A DNA stretch of 64,000 bases from Syntrophorhabdaceae bacterium (GTDB lineage Bacteria > Desulfobacterota > Syntrophorhabdia > Syntrophorhabdales > Syntrophorhabdaceae), in assembly GCA_963666485.2 (NCBI GenBank), contig CAXXUO010000001.1, positions 192,001-256,000 on the forward strand, in the 5' to 3' direction. Positions 1 to 6,645 of this stretch are shown here, one piece after another (positions within the stretch are counted from its first letter, which is position 1; every line of letters starts with the position of its first letter). The translations under genes were made by a program, and so were the position numbers. Below the pieces are notes generated by a model, which saw only the letters and a program-made list of their open reading frames with translations, did no database searches and was not told where the DNA came from.

Positions 1-146
1 TTACCGGAAAATCAAGACAGGCTCATGCCGGACAGGGAACGGCTGGAAAGTATGTTCGGATGAACACAATATTCCCCAGAATCGGGATGCGCGAATGAAG
101 GTGTTTATTCTTTGAAGAACGTCCCCCTCCTTCCCGCTTCTTTTTT

Positions 147-1013
147 TCAATTGTCAGATTTCCACCGGCCGCCTTCCTCGGCGAATGTGCTCCACTGGTT
201 ACCGGAGAAGATGATGACCGCTGTTCCGCCACGCACGACAACGCGCTTGATATTCTTGAGGGAATCTTCCATATCCTTTGCGGCCTCCTGCGCGAATGCC
301 TTCGCCTCATCCGCGCTCATCCGGGCGAGAAGAAGGTCCGTCCTGGCGTTTGACCGTTCGGTCGACAGGCGCTTGACCGCGTCAAAATCGCCTTTCTTCA
401 GAGCGTTGATCTTTTCCTTCAGGACCTTTGCCTGCGGGCTGTCCTGTGCGGCCTTGCCCTTAAGGTCGGCAGTGACCGGCAATTCATTGAAAAGCGGGGC
501 GCTGAATTTTACAGAGAAGGATATCGTCGGTATCTCATCGTTTCCGGCACCCTTCTCGGTATACTCGGTTTCCCCCGAAACCCGTGTCTTTGAGACGGCA
601 AGGTTCTTGAAAAGCTTCTTTCCGGAATCGCTGCGGCTCAGGGTCGTGAGCGACATGCCCTGTCGGGAAGGCTTCCGGAGAATTGTCACAACCATCTTAC
701 TCTGGTCCGCCGGATCGAACTGGAGGAGGAGTCCGCGGACCTTGCCTTCTTTGGCCAGGGTCGTGACCGGCAGGAAGGCTATTCCCCGCAGGGACTCCTG
801 AGGAACCTTCCTGTCCGCCAGCACTATGCGGATCTCTTTCGGGCGGTCGAGCAATCCTTCGGCGTTGTCGTGGAATTGGGCATAAGCCTCTTTCAACTCG
901 ATCGTTTCATTATTGATCACGAGAGTGCCTTGCACCCTGCCGGGATCGATAGCGTGCGCCGCTTGAAAACACAACAGCAGAAGAATAAGAAAACTCAGAA
1001 CGGTTCTTGTCAT
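147..1013 (-). CDS. Hypothetical exported protein
   Basis: 288-aa ORF with a signal-peptide-like N-terminus (MTRTVLSFLILLLLCFQAAHA); family not recognised. Confidence 0.75.
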   Translation of the reverse strand: MTRTVLSFLILLLLCFQAAHAIDPGRVQGTLVINNETIELKEAYAQFHDNAEGLLDRPKEIRIVLADRKVPQESLRGIAFLPVTTLAKEGKVRGLLLQFDPADQSKMVVTILRKPSRQGMSLTTLSRSDSGKKLFKNLAVSKTRVSGETEYTEKGAGNDEIPTISFSVKFSAPLFNELPVTADLKGKAAQDSPQAKVLKEKINALKKGDFDAVKRLSTERSNARTDLLLARMSADEAKAFAQEAAKDMEDSLKNIKRVVVRGGTAVIIFSGNQWSTFAEEGGRWKSDN

Positions 1014-1042
1014 AGTTCCCCCAACGTAACCACTATTTTTCT

Positions 1043-1309
1043 CTACGTATGATCAAATATCAGCTGCTTTGCTTCGACGCCGTCAATAGCATTTAATTTC
1101 TGCGTGAATTCGTGAAAACGCGAATCGGCCCCCACAAATTCGACCAGCAGTATACCGCCGGTCGAGGCCTCTTTGTCGTCGAGCTCATGTAATCCTAACC
1201 GTGTCTTTATGTTGCCTCCAAAATCGGTTAGGACCTGCTGTACCGGCAGCGCACGCACCAGCCGCTCCGTGACGTGAATCCCGAGAATGAGGTGTTTAGC
1301 TTTCTTCAT
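1043..1309 (-). CDS. Small ACT-like protein, TM1266/iron-only hydrogenase system regulator-like
   Basis: 88 aa with the motif VQQVLTDFGGNIKTRLGLHE; GGAGG RBS upstream. Confidence 0.6.
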   Translation of the reverse strand: MKKAKHLILGIHVTERLVRALPVQQVLTDFGGNIKTRLGLHELDDKEASTGGILLVEFVGADSRFHEFTQKLNAIDGVEAKQLIFDHT

Positions 1310-1580
1310 AACGTAACCTCCTGAGATAATGGTATTGTGGTGTATGATAGAATTATATCACGTTTAGGCCGTTTCCCGGCTTCAACGTAATTCAATTTCG
1401 ACATGCCTGCCGTGCCTTCTTGGCCTGCCCTTATCAATTGCGTGCATTGGGGGTCATCACACATTGTGCGTGAGACAGGCTGCAAACAAGGAATGGCGAC
1501 AGCTTAAAGAAGATCTCGTCATGCAAGCGTTCCATTACACGACCTGACCCCATAATTCTTGCAAGCTGGCAGAAGGTGAC

Positions 1581-1612
1581 GAGATATTGACATATTCAGG
1601 AACGTACCCGGT
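1581..1612 (+). repeat. Module-boundary motif, degenerate full copy
   Basis: gagatattgacatattcaggaacgtacccgg aligns with the copies at 3883, 3963 and 4726. Confidence 0.65.
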
Positions 1613-1852
1613 TTACCGACTCACCTTCATACATATTGTGCGTGATAGGCCACGGTGCAAGATTACCCCACTGTGCTGAAATAACAACATATTTAGTCTT
1701 TCATGACTCTACCCCGTCTTGCAAAAGAGGAAGGTCTCGGAGGATAATTTTTAACAAGGGCAAGCCGGGTCCAGGCGTGACGTCACGACAGCTATTGATC
1801 CGTTGGTTGCCAACGAGACCGCGGGAAATTGCGGGAACCACAGGAGGGTGCA

Positions 1853-2671
1853 ATGATCGATACATTGACCAACTTTGACCGTTTTTTAACCGTTTATCTT
1901 ATTCCCGTCGGGTGGAAAGTTCTCGGTGCCATCGTCCTGTGGATAGCAGGAGGCTGGGCGATCAGGATTATCGGGAATCTTTCGGGAAAGGGAATGCGGG
2001 CGCAAAAATTGGATCCCACGCTCATTAAGTACTTCGATGCCACTATCCGGGTTATCCTCAAAATAGTCCTTGTCATAGCGATCCTTTCCATCTTCGGCAT
2101 CCAGACCACGTCCTTCGTGGCCCTGATCGCTGCTGCCGGCATCGCTATCGGGGCAGCTTGGGGAGGTCTCCTGGCAAATTTCGCGGCCGGCGCCTTTCTC
2201 ATTATTCTGAGGCCTTTTCATGTCGGGGACATGATCACGGCAGCCGGGATGACGGGCGATGTCAGGGAAATCGGACTATTCGCCACAACCATCGATACAG
2301 TAGACAATCTCCGTGTTGTTGTGGGCAACAACAAGATCCTGTCGGACAACATCGTCAACTATACGACCAACCCGTTCCGACGCGTCGACCTGAAAGCACA
2401 GCTTGCCCAGAGTGTGGACCCCAATGAAGCAGCGACGCGCCTCACGGAACGGGTAAAGAAGATACCAAACGTCGTGGAGTCTCCCGCCCCGTCCGTGGAG
2501 ATACTGGAATTCAACCTCGCCGGACCGGTGCTCGCTGTGCGCCCTTTCTGCCACAACAAAGATTACTGGCAAGTGTTCTTTGACACGAACAGGGCAATAC
2601 AGGAGGTTTGCGCAACGGCCGGCTATGCAGCGCCGTGGACGAACCGGGTGGTTTATCATAAACCCCTGTAA
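1853..2671 (+). CDS. mscS: Small-conductance mechanosensitive channel
   Basis: Three hydrophobic segments, LANFAAG and RPFHVGD motifs; ATG at 1853 after a GGAGG RBS. Confidence 0.9.
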   Translation: MIDTLTNFDRFLTVYLIPVGWKVLGAIVLWIAGGWAIRIIGNLSGKGMRAQKLDPTLIKYFDATIRVILKIVLVIAILSIFGIQTTSFVALIAAAGIAIGAAWGGLLANFAAGAFLIILRPFHVGDMITAAGMTGDVREIGLFATTIDTVDNLRVVVGNNKILSDNIVNYTTNPFRRVDLKAQLAQSVDPNEAATRLTERVKKIPNVVESPAPSVEILEFNLAGPVLAVRPFCHNKDYWQVFFDTNRAIQEVCATAGYAAPWTNRVVYHKPL

Positions 2672-2710
2672 TGCCTGATGTCAGGTCAAGGAGAGACAGC
2701 GGGAAGGCAG

Positions 2711-2733
2711 GGGACGTCCCTGACTTCCTGCAT
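2711..2733 (+). repeat. Module-boundary motif, core only
   Basis: gggacgtccctgacttcctgcat; 2715-2733 matches 4000-4018 at 18/19 positions. Confidence 0.7.
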
Positions 2734-2734
2734 G

Positions 2735-3220
2735 CTACTTTGCCAAACGTACGGGAAGAACTCTTTGAAAAAGGTTGGTTGACTGCTTGAGCCACATCCG
2801 TTTGCCGCCGAAGAATTCTAAACCGGCGACCTCAGAACCTCGCGTTTCGGACGCCAGCACCAGGTCGCATGAAAATCGGATCAATTTTGTCAGATGTTCC
2901 TCTCCACATTCAGACTGGTAGGTCTTGCTCCTGTCATACAGGCCGGCAAGTTCGTCCAGGGTCGGCATCCGCCAGTCTGTGTAGCCGCCGCCGCGAAAAT
3001 TCTGGCAATATGATCTGGCATTGGAATAGCTGATGTCGCTTCCGTTGTCCTTTGCCGCCCACATAAGATTGGTCCTCGTATCGAGAACCGTTCCGTTGTC
3101 GTAGGCGATAAAAGGGCCATCCCGACCCGTCTCTCCCGCCGTGACATATTGGGCAGCGATGATTCCTGCAAAAGCGGCCATTATCAGTACCGCCGCCATT
3201 GTTGCCGATGGTCTTCTCAT
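2735..3220 (-). CDS. DUF1566 (Lcl C-terminal) domain exported protein
   Basis: Signal peptide followed by NGTVLDTRTNLMW and GGYTDWRMPTLDEL signatures. Confidence 0.85.
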   Translation of the reverse strand: MRRPSATMAAVLIMAAFAGIIAAQYVTAGETGRDGPFIAYDNGTVLDTRTNLMWAAKDNGSDISYSNARSYCQNFRGGGYTDWRMPTLDELAGLYDRSKTYQSECGEEHLTKLIRFSCDLVLASETRGSEVAGLEFFGGKRMWLKQSTNLFQRVLPVRLAK

Positions 3221-3401
3221 ACCCGGACCCCCTTTCGCTTTATGTTTTCCACTTCAACTGCCTGACTTTTCTCAGGCATCAAAAATCATCCGATCTCCGG
3301 CCCTCCCTCTTAGCTGGCTCGTTAGGCTTGGACTTGACCCGGACAGACAGGACCGTCCTTTAAGGACGCCCTATCTTCCCTGTCTTCGAGGGGTCTTCCT
3401 G

Positions 3402-3710
3402 TTAATATTTGTCGGGATTGAAGTTGCCTTCATGACCGAAATGCTTTTTATTCGCATTTTTCTGAGCCGCTATGTCGCTCGCGCTGGCTCCGTTGTCATG
3501 CATCCTGGTAATGATCTTATCCGCGGCGTTCTTGCGCTTTTGATCCATATCTTTTTCTTTTTGCGTGGATTGACCTGACGTAGTGCCTGTTTTCGAAGTG
3601 TCCGCCGCCATTACATTCAATGCCTGACCGGCGAAAAAGCTGCATGATACGACTAATGCGCTCAACAAAACCAGGGTTCTTCCTTTCATGATCTCTCTCC
3701 TTCCGGGCAT
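3402..3710 (-). CDS. Small hypothetical exported protein (start possibly 3689)
   Basis: Signal-peptide-like MKGRTLVLLSALVVSCSFFAG followed by a hydrophilic tail. Confidence 0.65.
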   Translation of the reverse strand: MPGRREIMKGRTLVLLSALVVSCSFFAGQALNVMAADTSKTGTTSGQSTQKEKDMDQKRKNAADKIITRMHDNGASASDIAAQKNANKKHFGHEGNFNPDKY

Positions 3711-3882
3711 TTTTTGTGATTGAGTATATCAGAGCATGTACGGGTTTTCAATGCCAGGGTTGGCAAGGGCAAAAGCCTTCCTCAGGTTTGCTCAAATCCA
3801 GAGATCCCGGCGTCGTACCGACTCGTAGTCTTTTGCTGACCCCGTTCCCTTTCCCTTTCGCGGCCAATCGGCGACAAAAGGA

Positions 3883-4018
3883 GAGATATTGAGATATTTG
3901 AGGACGTCCCCGAGCCCCATTACGAACCCCCCTGAGAGATTCCCTGACCCGCAACGAGGGCCGAGATATTGGCATATCTAAGGACGTCCCCGAGTTCCTC
4001 GTCCCTGAGTTCCTGCAT
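3883..4018 (+). repeat. Two full boundary motifs (3883-3914, 3963-3999) plus a tandem core copy (4000-4018)
   Basis: gagatattgagatatttgaggacgtccccgag; gagatattggcatatctaaggacgtccccgagttcct; cgtccctgagttcctgcat. Confidence 0.85.
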
Positions 4019-4145
4019 CACCACTAGAGTTCTAAAATGGTGATATTGCAAGTTCTGATCTCATGTTTCTGTTGACATAATATCAGGAAATTCGTACACT
4101 CAAATCTCGAAACGAGTAAATTTTTGACCACAAAAGGGGAAACAG

Positions 4146-4490
4146 ATGAAAAAGCTGAACATAATGATGGGCGCTTCCATATTTCTTTTGGCAATATTCA
4201 TTGTTAACGCAACGGCGTACGAAAGAGTATACAGCTACGAGCCCGAAACAGAATATGTCGGGCAAGGGGTCGTTGATTTTAAGAATATAACACCAGAACA
4301 GTGCCTGGCGGCTTGCAAACGGGAAGGCCGGTGTGGGTATTATACCTGGTATCCTGCCGGCGCGCCATCAGCAAGCACCCGGTATTCCCCGGCTGAGAAC
4401 AAATATACGCGGTGTTTACTTATGATGGGCCCGTTCAAAAAGTACACGAAGAGGGCGGCCATCTCCGGCATGATACAGGAGAGCAGATAA
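4146..4490 (+). CDS. Exported PAN/apple-like domain protein
   Basis: Signal peptide; C-x3-C-x5-C-x4-W ... CLL ... ISG pattern. Confidence 0.7.
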   Translation: MKKLNIMMGASIFLLAIFIVNATAYERVYSYEPETEYVGQGVVDFKNITPEQCLAACKREGRCGYYTWYPAGAPSASTRYSPAENKYTRCLLMMGPFKKYTKRAAISGMIQESR

Positions 4491-4536
4491 CCAAGAGTTC
4501 TTCACGTGTCGAGAATCATGTCCGGTCCGCAGTACC

Positions 4537-4622
4537 GAAAATAAGGCGCCAAGTAAGGCGCCATATTTTTTTATAAAAAACTCAGTAACGACCTACTTTC
4601 CTACAGAGTCGCCCCTGCAGTA
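4537..4622 (-). pseudogene. Displaced copy of the 5S rRNA 3' end plus terminator
   Basis: 4587-4622 matches 6534-6569 at 34/36; the ggcgcc hairpin at 4544-4563 mirrors 6489-6508. Confidence 0.9.
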
Positions 4623-4636
4623 AGGGCGTCCCTGAC
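4621..4636 (+). repeat. Module-boundary motif core fused to the 5S fragment
   Basis: taagggcgtccctgac starts exactly where the 5S similarity ends. Confidence 0.7.
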
Positions 4637-4725
4637 TCTCTGACTATCCTAAGGACAGAAGGCCTAGATATTTCTCTAAAATCACCGAGGTTGTTCAATC
4701 GTAGGCTCTACCCCCTGTTTTGAGC

Positions 4726-4758
4726 AAATATTGACATATCCAAGGACGTCCCTCAGTT
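4726..4758 (+). repeat. Module-boundary motif, full copy
   Basis: aaatattgacatatccaaggacgtccctcagtt. Confidence 0.8.
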
Positions 4759-4849
4759 ACTTTTTAACGAACGCTCCTGGTCGCCCTATAATCTTTGGTA
4801 ACTCTGCCTGACTTTGTGTAAGATAAGGATCAGATGAGGAGATGCAATC

Positions 4850-5311
4850 ATGGATGAACTGACCGATTCCCATTCCTGGGCTGTAAAAGGGGATAAGCTT
4901 AGGGCGGACAAAAATTGGCCGGAGCTTATCAAACACTGTGAAAACTGGCTAAAAAAATACCCTGGAGAGCTCAGCGCTCAAATCCTTCTTGGGGAAGCAT
5001 ATAACAATGCAGGCCGATACCAGGAATCGATGGACCTCTATTTCAAAGTCGTTACAAAAAGACCCAATGATTATGCGACCTGGTATTTGCTCGGTTCTCT
5101 CGCTGTCAGAGTCGGGAAAACTGAGGAAGCTATCAACTACTTCTCAATGGCAGTCTACACGAACCGTGATATGGGGGCGACAATCAAATCGACGTACCCG
5201 GACCTTTACGAAAAAGTAAGAAAACAATCCGGTTCGAATAGAATATTGCGGCTTTGCGTCGGAATAATCATTCTTATCCTGTTTGCAATCGCGGTCTGGA
5301 TATTTTTCTAA
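4850..5311 (+). CDS. TPR protein with a C-terminal membrane anchor
   Basis: TPR-like helices (LGEAYNNAGRYQES, TWYLLGSL..GKTEEAI), hydrophobic C-terminus, GAGGAG RBS. Confidence 0.8.
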   Translation: MDELTDSHSWAVKGDKLRADKNWPELIKHCENWLKKYPGELSAQILLGEAYNNAGRYQESMDLYFKVVTKRPNDYATWYLLGSLAVRVGKTEEAINYFSMAVYTNRDMGATIKSTYPDLYEKVRKQSGSNRILRLCVGIIILILFAIAVWIFF

Positions 5312-5519
5312 ATTAATCACGTACATTCAACGCGTTCTTCCCCGCTGAGATTCAAGGGGCGTTGAAGCCCCCCAAACACTCCGGACAACTGAGTCAACAA
5401 CGCTCCCTTTTTTATATTGAGTGACTCGATATTCCAAAGTTAAGGATCTGCCCGATATATTACTTTTTAACGAACGTTCCTAATCACCCGAATTATTGAA
5501 GATCGTTCGAATCCTCTTC

Positions 5520-5969
5520 CTAGGGCAATGGGGGCATCTTGCCGGTGCTCTTCCCATCCTTCGCATATTTGAGGGCGATTCCGACTGTCATATCCTCCGG
5601 GCTGCCTTTTACAAGGATGCTGCTAAACCTTCCATTCCTTGTTTGTTCCGATTCCGGGTATTCAAGAACTATCTCGCCCTTCTCACTATACCAATGGGAT
5701 TCCAGTATCCTTGTCCCGCGCGGCTCGTTTGTACGGGCTTCGACCTTATCGAGGATCCTCTTGGTCTTCATGGCGGGCTCCGGTTTATCATTCACTGTCA
5801 GCCGCCAGTATGTGATCGTGTCCTTGTTCCTGGTGACACTGTCGGAGTCTATGTAGTATTTTGCCGTTATGCCAAGCATCGTATTGGTAGTAACATGCAC
5901 CCAGTTCGTCGCAAACGCACTACCGGAGAAGAAAAGAAATGCCAGGAAGCAGAAGATAACTTTTTTCAT
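5520..5969 (-). CDS. Exported protein, surface-adhesin E-like
   Basis: Signal peptide MKKVIFCFLAFLFFSGSAFA followed by NWV...YYIDSDSV...YW; GGAGG RBS. Confidence 0.7.
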   Translation of the reverse strand: MKKVIFCFLAFLFFSGSAFATNWVHVTTNTMLGITAKYYIDSDSVTRNKDTITYWRLTVNDKPEPAMKTKRILDKVEARTNEPRGTRILESHWYSEKGEIVLEYPESEQTRNGRFSSILVKGSPEDMTVGIALKYAKDGKSTGKMPPLP

Positions 5970-6147
5970 ACCGCGAACCTCCCTTATAAATGATTCCGGC
6001 GATCTCGGAGAACACATTCAGGCAACATGTCCGCTATATAATAAAAATCGATCGTCGCTCTTGCAATCAAATTAATGAGGCATGATGATCAATATTCGAC
6101 TCATTCTTTAAAAAAGCACTAAAAGCCCAAAATTTGAAGACGGAAAA

Positions 6148-6377
6148 CCTTGGATCCCGGTGTCAAGCACCGGGATCACGGCACGTAATAAAGGATAACG
6201 GGCTAAAATAAACAAATGATGGGCTAATAATAAAATATATAATTTCAAAGGCAAAGACACTGGATGGCAATGACAACCAACTGGATTCCCGCATTCGCGG
6301 GAATGACGGATTGTTAGGTTTCGTGGAAAGTTATTTTGTTGGATTTCTTGCGGATTATTCCGGCAAAGCCGGAATCA
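6148..6377. repeat. Cluster of REP-like palindromes (6148-6180, 6281-6308, 6352-6376)
   Basis: ccttggatcccggtgtcaagcaccgggatcacg; ctggattcccgcattcgcgggaatgacg; attccggcaaagccggaat. Confidence 0.8.
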
Positions 6378-6481
6378 ATAATAGTTTCAGCCGCAAGGCC
6401 TGAAATCCTTTTTGGTCCGGCCGAACGTCAGTAAAACTAGGATGTGCGCACCAGTCCGGCAGGCCGAGGTGCTTTTTTACG

Positions 6482-6515
6482 AAAAAAAAGGCGCCTTTTT
6501 GGGCGCCTGTTTTTT
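6482..6515 (-). terminator. Intrinsic terminator of the rrn operon
   Basis: aggcgcc-loop-ggcgcct stem flanked by A and T runs, immediately after 5S. Confidence 0.8.
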
Positions 6516-6526
6516 CGTAAAAAAAG

Positions 6527-6645
6527 ACCCGGCAACGACCTACTTTCCCACAGAGTCACCCCTGCAGTATCATCGGCGCGGTAGAGCTTAACTGCCGTGT
6601 TCGGGATGGGAACGGGTGTGGCCTCTACGCTATGGTCACCGGGAA
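6527..6645 (-). rRNA. rrf: 5S rRNA
   Basis: Reverse complement contains cccatcccgaacac and gaaagtaggtcgttgcc; ends approximate. Confidence 0.97.

Follow-up and report, generated by a model that had tools for sequence, protein, structure and literature searches.

The left part of a 64,000-nucleotide (nt) stretch of DNA from a Syntrophorhabdaceae bacterium (positions 192,001 to 256,000 of contig CAXXUO010000001.1; hereafter the window) carries a polar repeat of ~28 nt between small, unrelated genes beside a ribosomal RNA (rrn) operon. We conclude, with a probability of about 0.8, that this motif is the type A terminal inverted repeat (TIR) of a TIRtron, and that the copies in the window are non-autonomous solo TIRs resembling the right end of the element, together with TIR fragments. 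The TIRtron here is a ~1.2-kb unit in which one TIRYT gene, encoding a RAYT-like Y1 HUH protein with a helix-turn-helix (HTH) of the DnaA domain IV type, lies between inverted repeats. The figure given applies to the identity of the motif and of the element, and our confidence in the details of mechanism is lower. The copies have accumulated next to the rRNA operon, in an interval under little constraint, and the locus reads as a landing zone for transposon ends. An earlier note on this DNA had interpreted the locus as a non-integron array for gene capture, in which every acquired module left one joining site; this reading is not supported.

We searched the window for GAGATATTGRCATATNNARGGACGTCCC at up to three mismatches, using 100 shuffles as a control. 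Four full copies were found, all on the + strand, at 1581-1608, 3883-3910, 3963-3990 and 4725-4752, against none in the shuffled sequences, confirming that the repeat between small envelope genes is real; at up to five mismatches, the rest of the window held no further copy, in agreement with the earlier note that the full motif is missing from the core part. Three of these positions are as given there, and the fourth is 4725 rather than 4726. The copy at 3963 matches the earlier pattern without mismatch and the other three have two mismatches each; that at 1581, between a TM1266-like gene and an mscS-type gene, is a degenerate, right-end-like copy in a TTGACA form. The core GGACGTCCC occurred seven times in the window versus 0.77 expected (2711/2712, a palindrome counted on both strands; 3902; 3982; 4744; and 28315/28316, also a palindrome, in the core part of the window). 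Within positions 1-6500, CGTCCC was present seven times on the + strand (120, 2715, 3905, 3985, 4000, 4627 and 4747) and once on the - strand, at the palindrome, whereas ~2.7 per strand would be expected from its frequency of 0.42 per kb per strand in the whole genome. TIR-type ends were ~12-fold enriched across C1:190000-198500 (6 in 8.5 kb versus 0.057 per kb genome-wide; C1, C2 and C4 are contigs of the source genome). The solo motif contains an 8-bp palindrome, GGACGTCC, and a TTGACA exactly 17 nt from the tip, but it folded no better than its shuffles (z approximately -0.5 to -0.8; -0.76 and -0.51 on the two strands), and folding revealed neither a hairpin nor an attC-like structure in it, nor a significant hairpin at the right end.

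The source genome (G000; 10 contigs, 3.77 Mb) contains 12 type A copies at up to five mismatches, in five loci: the four in the window, one at C1:312567, six at C2:652454-660706 and one at C4:210686. A 331-amino-acid open reading frame (ORF) at C2:655343-656335 has its TGA stop codon inside the motif copy at C2:656329 (...ttcaagttGGGATATTGAcatattcAAGGACGTCCCC), and another three copies, inverted, precede its start by 182-264 nt, so that the gene is bracketed by TIRs over C2:655062-656357. It is the only gene cognate to type A in G000 and lies on a contig other than the window's. The encoded protein matches Pfam Y1_Tnp (32.8 bits; cut-off 23) and Bac_DnaA_C (33.4 bits; cut-off 31.5). All 11 aligned homologues share residues H60, H62 and Y119, which we take to be the HUH motif and the catalytic tyrosine, while the C-terminal part of a family profile matches DnaA domain IV (PDB 2z4r, E 3.3e-4). 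Two claims of the earlier note, that the motif is the site of action of an enzyme encoded elsewhere and that this enzyme is a HUH Y1 or RAYT-like nuclease, were thereby supported, and the bracketing of Y1 transposase genes favours a working end of a mobile element over a promoter or an operator as the nature of the motif. A tblastn search of G000 returned two such transposase genes, one copy per TIR type, and remains of the 3' end of the transposase gene are preserved at C4:210686. Eight of the nine solo copies are on the + strand, and all lie in regions of negative GC skew, although few independent events stand behind them. The intact type A TIRtron itself resides in an island (locus L002, C2:648000-664000) together with genes for an AAA_14/DUF4143 ATPase, a DSP-PTPase-type phosphatase (Tc-R-P family), an HNH_2 endonuclease and a HhH-GPD protein; there, two copies of a ~150-nt unit, each comprising a TIR, the 5' end of the phosphatase gene and the region upstream of that gene, lie 1.06 kb from one another.

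The same anatomy recurs with a second TIR type. A paralogue of the type A gene (C1:678812-679798; 46% identical) has the same two domains (Y1_Tnp 27.1 bits) and is likewise bracketed, over C1:678772-680054, by type B TIRs of the form TT(A/T)CTTACTTTCTTAAGGACGTCCCC. Type B has 40 copies in G000; among them are 12 inverted doublets spanning 102-112 bp, with a length of 111 bp in 11 cases, and one doublet that we folded formed a hairpin (minimum free energy -29.6 kcal/mol, z -6.7). Across 12 TIRYT loci of G000 and its relatives, an inverted upstream copy was present at seven and an end in ...GTCCC within 45 nt after the stop codon at nine. The inner part of the TIR varies by paralogue (ATATTGACATATTC in type A, CAATTGAAATATTT in a variant of type A, TTATTTACTTGTTAACG in type C and GAATGTGAAGATGTG in type D), whereas the tip A(A/C)G(G/A)ACGTCCC, ending AAGGACGTCCC(C), is common to all types; at least four TIR types that share this 11-nt tip and differ inside occur within one genus. 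G000 lacks a transposase gene of type C although it carries type C copies, which indicates that its type C TIRs are orphans of a lost element. One of them lies just left of the window (C1:191244, minus strand; L054 7245-7268), directly upstream of a second phosphatase gene (Y_phosphatase2/Tc-R-P).

A larger conserved repeat of ~350 bp surrounds the 111-bp type B doublets at L001 4410-4720 (C1:272410-272720) and ~10 other loci; its outer parts are also partly inverted repeats (…ggtcttccggttaag… / …cttaaccgggagact…), and it holds no ORF. At L001 4220-4790, the type B element lies between runs of short tandem repeats (GGCTAACG-like units and heptamers of CTTACGC), and 'gttcaagg' runs similar to those of L001 were present at other type B loci.

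The motif and the gene co-occur in relatives and are restricted to one genus. The relatives compared are other species, 76-86% identical in their genes, and intergenic borders between them are not placeable to the base. At up to two mismatches, the type A motif was present in 7 of 41 genomes, namely G000 and 6 of 19 others of the same genus, and in none of 21 genomes outside it; a reversed-pattern control over the 41 genomes gave no match. Full-length type A orthologues at least 67% identical were found in G002 (82%), G007, G015 and G019. All four carriers also have the motif, with one copy either overlapping the last part of the gene match or beginning 6 nt beyond it, and G039 has a 59% identical orthologue with a variant TIR. 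The exact pattern occurred in four stretches of a public genome collection (genome_contigs) and three of a metagenome collection (metagenome_contigs); G002:C1 and G011:C24/C92 account for the former and for two of the three latter, so these collections added no new strains.

Reduced derivatives of the element are also present in the genus. G002 has type A doublets of ~195 bp, and contig C4 of G015 (L029 4347-8579) carries three internally deleted mini-TIRtrons of ~310 bp and one intact TIRtron among single small genes. These mini-TIRtrons retain both ends with ~24 N-terminal and ~40 C-terminal codons and adjoin an 844-amino-acid ORF; in flanks read by eye, a target duplication was not evident at them. 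Because they lie between single genes with both ends kept, they argue for insertion into an existing row of genes.

We next compared the interval that receives the copies. Near the right end of the array, a gene for a TPR protein with a C-terminal hydrophobic stretch (4850-5311, + strand; identified by its TPR match) points towards the 5S gene of a complete rrn operon on the minus strand (5S gene, 6527-6643), and this position near the 5S gene and this orientation are found in four species in all, at distances of 0.4 kb in G011, 1.2 kb in G000, 3.5 kb in G018 and 6.3 kb in G002. TIRs lie within this interval in all four. In G011 it holds little beyond one type A TIR, while in G002 it contains an intact type A TIRtron (the 82% orthologue), two genes and a second right end (L027 11083) that keeps ~25 nt of the transposase 3' end. 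The orphan copies of the window thus occupy an interval in which a sister species still has the transposase gene. Upstream of the TPR gene, an alignment read by eye put a TIR-like end in six of seven species, 13-17 nt ahead of the conserved block TTTG(G/A)TAAC: C-like in G000, of another type in G002, with a stutter (a tandem repetition of the tip, described below) in G011, and of a degenerate type D in G018, G017 and G009; the same alignment gave no TIR-like end there in G012. From this alignment we take the spot upstream of the TPR gene to be a recurrent landing spot. The rrn-proximal position of the gene in four species, together with the TIR-like end upstream in six of seven, shows that this unit, and the TIR beside the gene, is old and not a recent capture.

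Other repeat ends in the window carry footprints that may bear on how ends are joined. The earlier note had listed core-only copies at 2711, 3361, 4000 and 4621 and a degenerate copy near 5428-5453, all on the + strand; those at 2711, 4000 and 4621 are clear, and the other two are weak. That at 2711 is the palindrome GGGGACGTCCC (2710-2720), which we read as two TIR tips head to head with a shared flank on each strand, so that the stated single orientation holds for the full copies and not for this one: its + flank is shared with 4001, as GTCCCTGA(C/G)TTCCTGCAT at 2716 and 4001, and its minus flank, CCTTCCCGCT, is shared with an additional + strand TIR-like end, AAGAACGTCCCC, that we detected at 115-126. 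The copy at 4000 forms the latter of two 15-nt units repeated in tandem (3986-4015, +), in which GTCCC and ~10 nt of flank are doubled; its unit, GTCCCTGAGTTCCTGCAT, is seen again at 2716-2733. At 4621-4631 (+), a truncated end, AAGGGCGTCCC, is directly joined to a fragment of 5S rRNA. The core read at 3361 as TTTAAGGACGCCCT belongs to a weak TIR-end relic with one base missing (TTAAGGACGCCCTA, 3362-3375, +). A type C-like TIR, TTACTTTTTAACGAACGCTCCT (4757-4779, +; compared with the TIR of G009 L023), follows the type A copy at 4725 after 4 nt, and a second such A and C pair, a degenerate and weak type A copy followed by a type C-like one (5460-5482), occupies 5428-5482 (+) downstream of the TPR gene. 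The end at 115-126, both type C-like repeats, the 5S fragment and a TPR relic described below had been missed by the earlier note.

Stutters such as that at 3986-4015, in which GTCCC and its flank are repeated in tandem with a period of 14-25 nt, were found genome-wide at four of the 10 ends of type A, five of the 40 of type B and one of 19 others. Among all 9,790 GTCCC sites there are only 14 such cases, and 10 of them are at these 69 TIR-type ends, a specificity for TIR ends that argues for an end-directed process. In addition, direct TIR repeats with shared adjoining sequence bracket one or two genes at four places. In the window (4725-4779 and 5428-5482) they enclose the TPR gene; in G000 (C2:652454 and 653510; ~150 nt shared), one membrane-protein ORF; and in G002, the YdjM and acyltransferase genes at one place (L027 9279 and 11108; ~50 nt in common, a relic of the transposase 3' end among them) and one ORF at another (L030 5037 and 6046). 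Taken together, the stutters, shared flanks, gene bracketing, 5S-TIR joint and sharp inner boundary of the window copies point to a cut-and-rejoin process directed at the ends, as read from these sequence footprints.

Several observations weigh against our identification of the motif and element, or at least against its simplest form. Several pairs of copies have 7-13 nt beyond GTCCC in common, which indicates that the copied unit, or the true end of the element, reaches past the tip, and these shared flanks and the bracketing of genes are not explained by simple independent insertion. The four window copies share one sharp inner boundary, GAGATATT..., that random deletion of whole elements does not predict. 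In G011 (five motif copies) and G013 (one), the best full-length TIRYT match is only 48% identical, indicating that motif copies can outlive their cognate gene or be independent of it. At the protein level, the type A protein scores 61.7 bits against the NCBIfam model REP_Tyr_transpos (NF047646), below the cut-off of 80; neither phmmer nor a profile search matched a solved Y1 transposase in the PDB; and a PF01797 search of G000 at E 0.001 gave no match, although an hmmscan of the ORF itself passes the cut-off, a discrepancy that we ascribe to a first-pass filter in the genome search. The tip here, GGGGACGT, meets the consensus GGGGWSAS at six of eight positions; as the section on TIRs in PMC3733652 (Di Nocera, De Gregorio and Rocco 2013) reports this consensus for the majority of cases and calls other TIRs unrelated to it, it is not obligatory. 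Finally, where they treat TIRYTs and TIRtrons, PMC3733652 and PMC6006769 (Quentin et al. 2018) present comparative genomics only, and activity, cleavage site and target are not given in those parts of the papers.

The remaining genes of the array are small and, by domain search, as the earlier note had called them. They comprise an mscS-type channel gene (1853-2671, +; MS_channel_2nd 65.5 bits), an exported Lcl_C (DUF1566) protein gene (2735-3220, -; Lcl_C 52.3 bits), a small exported protein gene that matched no family in ORF and domain searches (3402-3710, -), a PAN-like small exported protein gene whose PAN_4 match (25.0 bits) is below the cut-off of 27 (4146-4490, +) and, beyond the TPR gene, an Adhesin_E-like gene that probably starts at the codon for MKKVIF... 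(5520-5969, -; Adhesin_E 28.5 bits). N-terminal hydrophobic leaders are visible in translations of the array genes. ORF and domain searches found no recombinase within the array or across the 8 kb on its left, which together with the failure of the motif to fold agrees with the earlier note. Between the PAN-like and TPR genes, 4545-4620 (-) repeats the hairpin of the rrn terminator together with the final ~43 nt of 5S rRNA: its likeness to the true 5S gene ends at 4620, exactly at the truncated TIR end, and the 5S fragment (within 4578-4620) has two mismatches in the 31 nt before this break. A relic of the TPR gene 3' end (4661-4682, +; compare 5296-5311) precedes the type A copy at 4725 in an arrangement like that of the TPR-TIR unit of G011.

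Two side observations concern this part of the window. A promoter-like site at 4764-4792, 58 nt upstream of the TPR start codon, combines a -35 element (TTAACG) from the type C-like TIR with a -10 element (TATAAT, 4787-4792) from the flank, making a TIR-borne hybrid promoter possible. Further right, 6145-6181 and 6279-6312 hold two other hairpin-type repeats (…cccggtgtcaagcaccggg… and …ggattcccgcattcgcgggaatgac…) with many copies in G000 and its relatives and a word depth of 245-1131 versus ~5-8 in the flanks in contigs of the sample; these look like classical REP-like elements (REP, repetitive extragenic palindrome) with no relation to the TIR family.

On the reading that we favour, the TIRYT would recognise its own TIRs, with the HTH perhaps binding the GGACGTCC palindrome and the Y1 domain cutting near the tip. 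By analogy with the Y1 enzymes of IS200/IS605 and RAYT systems, it would nick and rejoin DNA at or just beyond ACGTCCC(C), and so may mobilise both TIRtrons and their deletion derivatives, including the type B doublets, the ~195-bp doublets of G002 and the ~310-bp mini-elements of G015. New ends would land preferentially beside existing ends, which would produce both the stutters and the same-strand stacks of different TIR types. Such stacks are seen as A followed by C in G000 and C followed by D in G018, and they suggest that new ends land next to old ones. Later deletion and local duplication would then trim the elements to solo right ends, and the genes between the copies would be ordinary accessory bystanders rather than cargo borne by the repeat.

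It is also conceivable, if unlikely, that the array is made of passive scars: whole TIRtrons would once have been present here, and segmental duplication and deletion alone would have produced the present arrangement, with no ongoing or solo mobility. Local duplication and deletion have clearly occurred, as seen in the relic of the TPR gene 3' end and the 5S fragment; the copies at 3883 and 3963 resemble an 80-bp tandem duplication with a shared flank, the A and C pair is duplicated around the TPR gene, and transposase 3' relics remain at C4:210686 and at the second right end in G002. However, none of the window copies keeps a transposase-coding relic and all stop at the same inner boundary, and passive duplication does not account for stutters that are almost confined to TIR-type ends.

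A more active role for the tips is a tentative idea that we consider quite unlikely. TIR tips (ACGTCCCC and ~10 nt) may be landing or joining sites of the TIRYT, at which ends of paralogous elements stack on one strand and segments of 'gene + TIR' are occasionally integrated or duplicated. If true, this would amount to a cassette-like shuffling of small accessory genes, driven by a HUH nuclease, at hot spots such as the rrn-proximal interval.

Very unlikely, in our assessment, is the fuller version of this idea, in which the TIR tip is a joining site and the TIRYT integrates circles or segments of 'gene + TIR' beside a resident TIR, building a polar array by cassette-like capture. The four bracketed gene groups, the 5S fragment joined directly to a TIR end at 4620/4621 and the variation of the TPR-5S interval from 0.4 to 6.3 kb with TIRs always inside would all fit such a process, as would the GC content of 0.40-0.50 across 3450-6300 (0.55 in the genome). 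Against it, the TPR gene is an old resident of its position; gene orientations are mixed; the gap between the adhesin-like gene and the 5S gene has no repeat copy; in G018 the TIRs flanking the TPR gene point towards one another; and the elements between single genes in G015 are complete mini-TIRtrons. The mscS gene, 76-86% identical across the genus, occupies a different locus in each of seven relatives (L008-L014), yet its flanks there showed no TIR end at six loci and one lone hit ~1.5 kb away at the seventh. In G011, mscS and a gene for a TPR-like exported protein (L009 1284-3103) lie between genes that are ~160 nt apart in G000 (C9:439050-439260), and the borders there have no TIR. These relocations indicate that small envelope genes move within the genus without the repeat.

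Searches for junctions and for variable modules gave no support to capture either. The contigs examined came from three contig sets of one sample, probably the source of the assembly; they contained no credible excision joint at the locus and no variants, although contigs cannot reveal rare forms. A further run, of raw reads, had none that fell on the locus. The only long joint in the contigs, connecting 1612 to 6284 and skipping 4671 letters, was rejected as an excision product, having a side of 25 letters and an end in another abundant repeat. Module searches in relatives returned paralogous phosphatase genes and repeat units but no clean pair of filled and empty sites. The earlier note had named synteny in relatives, with indel boundaries unrelated to the motif, as evidence against capture: the TPR gene is indeed in synteny, and indels were not shown to end at the motif, so that this evidence is partial.

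A regulator site or promoter element of envelope genes, with GGACGTCC as operator and TTGACA as -35 box, would suit the exact spacing of TTGACA from the tip, the 8-bp palindrome and the three + strand copies ~100-245 nt ahead of + strand genes, but it is hardly credible and largely refuted by the link of the motif to a transposase gene, given that inverted copies bracket transposase genes in several genomes, distances to start codons vary, other copies face gene 3' ends, only 12 copies in five loci exist genome-wide and a consensus promoter scan called no type A copy as a promoter.

The landing-zone reading has consequences for annotation and for the study of this element family. A polar repeat between unrelated genes need not signal a capture system, and a false lead is removed here. 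The genus forms a compact natural test set, with at least four TIR types, intact genes, mini-elements, hairpin doublets, solo ends and a comparable hot spot, making it a good natural system for learning how TIRYTs act; the stutters and shared flanks hint at the position at which the enzyme cuts and rejoins.

Compared with known systems, the array recalls an integron at first sight, in that a short polar repeat separates unrelated single genes. Integron cassette arrays have an integrase with attI, attC sites that fold, and co-oriented cassettes. Here, there is no integrase, attI or folded attC, the genes are on both strands, the repeat is a transposon end and at least one 'cassette' is a conserved resident gene. 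IS91/ISCR elements are rolling-circle HUH elements of a Y2 Rep-like protein family, without inverted repeats and with defined ori and ter ends; one-ended HUH movement of adjacent DNA would fit the copying of a TIR together with a few bases of donor flank, but nothing here indicates read-through transposition, and both the protein family and the presence of TIRs differ. IS200/IS605 elements, such as IS608 and ISDra2, have subterminal hairpins without terminal inverted repeats, occur as multiple copies of whole elements and often carry tnpB. The element described here shares with them the Y1 HUH domain (Y1_Tnp), the lack of an evident target duplication at the mini-elements and the single orientation of most solo copies relative to replication (8 of 9 on the + strand), and differs in having TIRs, one gene copy per type and no significant hairpin at the right end.

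The REP/REPIN-RAYT systems are closer. A REP unit is an imperfect palindrome of 20-40 nt, often with a GTAG head. The repeat unit here is not palindromic, its solo type A form folds like shuffled sequence and it has no GTAG head, while the protein has an extra HTH domain and falls below the NCBIfam RAYT cut-off. Shared features are a domesticated-looking, single-copy Y1 gene flanked by its own inverted repeat, non-autonomous inverted doublets (type B, 102-112 bp; type A, ~195 bp in G002) and mostly vertical inheritance within a lineage. This comparison draws on what is reportedly described by Bertels and Rainey in 2011, Nunvar in 2010 and Ton-Hoang in 2012.

The closest match is with TIRtrons. 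As described in the relevant sections of PMC3733652, these encode TIRYTs, which are RAYT-like genes flanked by TIRs instead of REPs; some TIRs overlap the 3' end of the gene (the '3'ov' class), and TIR families occur as singles, dimers and groups. In the classification given in PMC6006769, Y1 proteins with a Bac_DnaA_C-like tail form subclass 2.1.2, which is equated there with TIRYTs, the C-terminal HTH of subclass 2.1 being Bac_DnaA_C, HTH_23 or HTH_28. The element described here agrees with these accounts, so far as those sections go, in its single RAYT-like Y1 HUH gene between non-palindromic TIRs, the overlap of a repeat with the gene 3' end as in the '3'ov' class, the C-terminal Bac_DnaA_C-type HTH, a TIR that begins GGGG, the dispersal of TIRs as singles, dimers and groups (type A, 12 copies in five loci; type B, 40) and the presence of several TIRYT genes per genome, each with its own TIR family. 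It differs in having at least four TIR types that share an 11-nt tip and differ inside, in right-end-like solo copies stacked on one strand at a conserved spot, and in stutter duplications at tips and repeats that bracket genes; neither the stacking nor the stutters and bracketing are mentioned in the parts of PMC3733652 and PMC6006769 that deal with these elements. The element is thus a further TIRtron/TIRYT, of a kind known but little studied, in an uncultured deltaproteobacterial genus.

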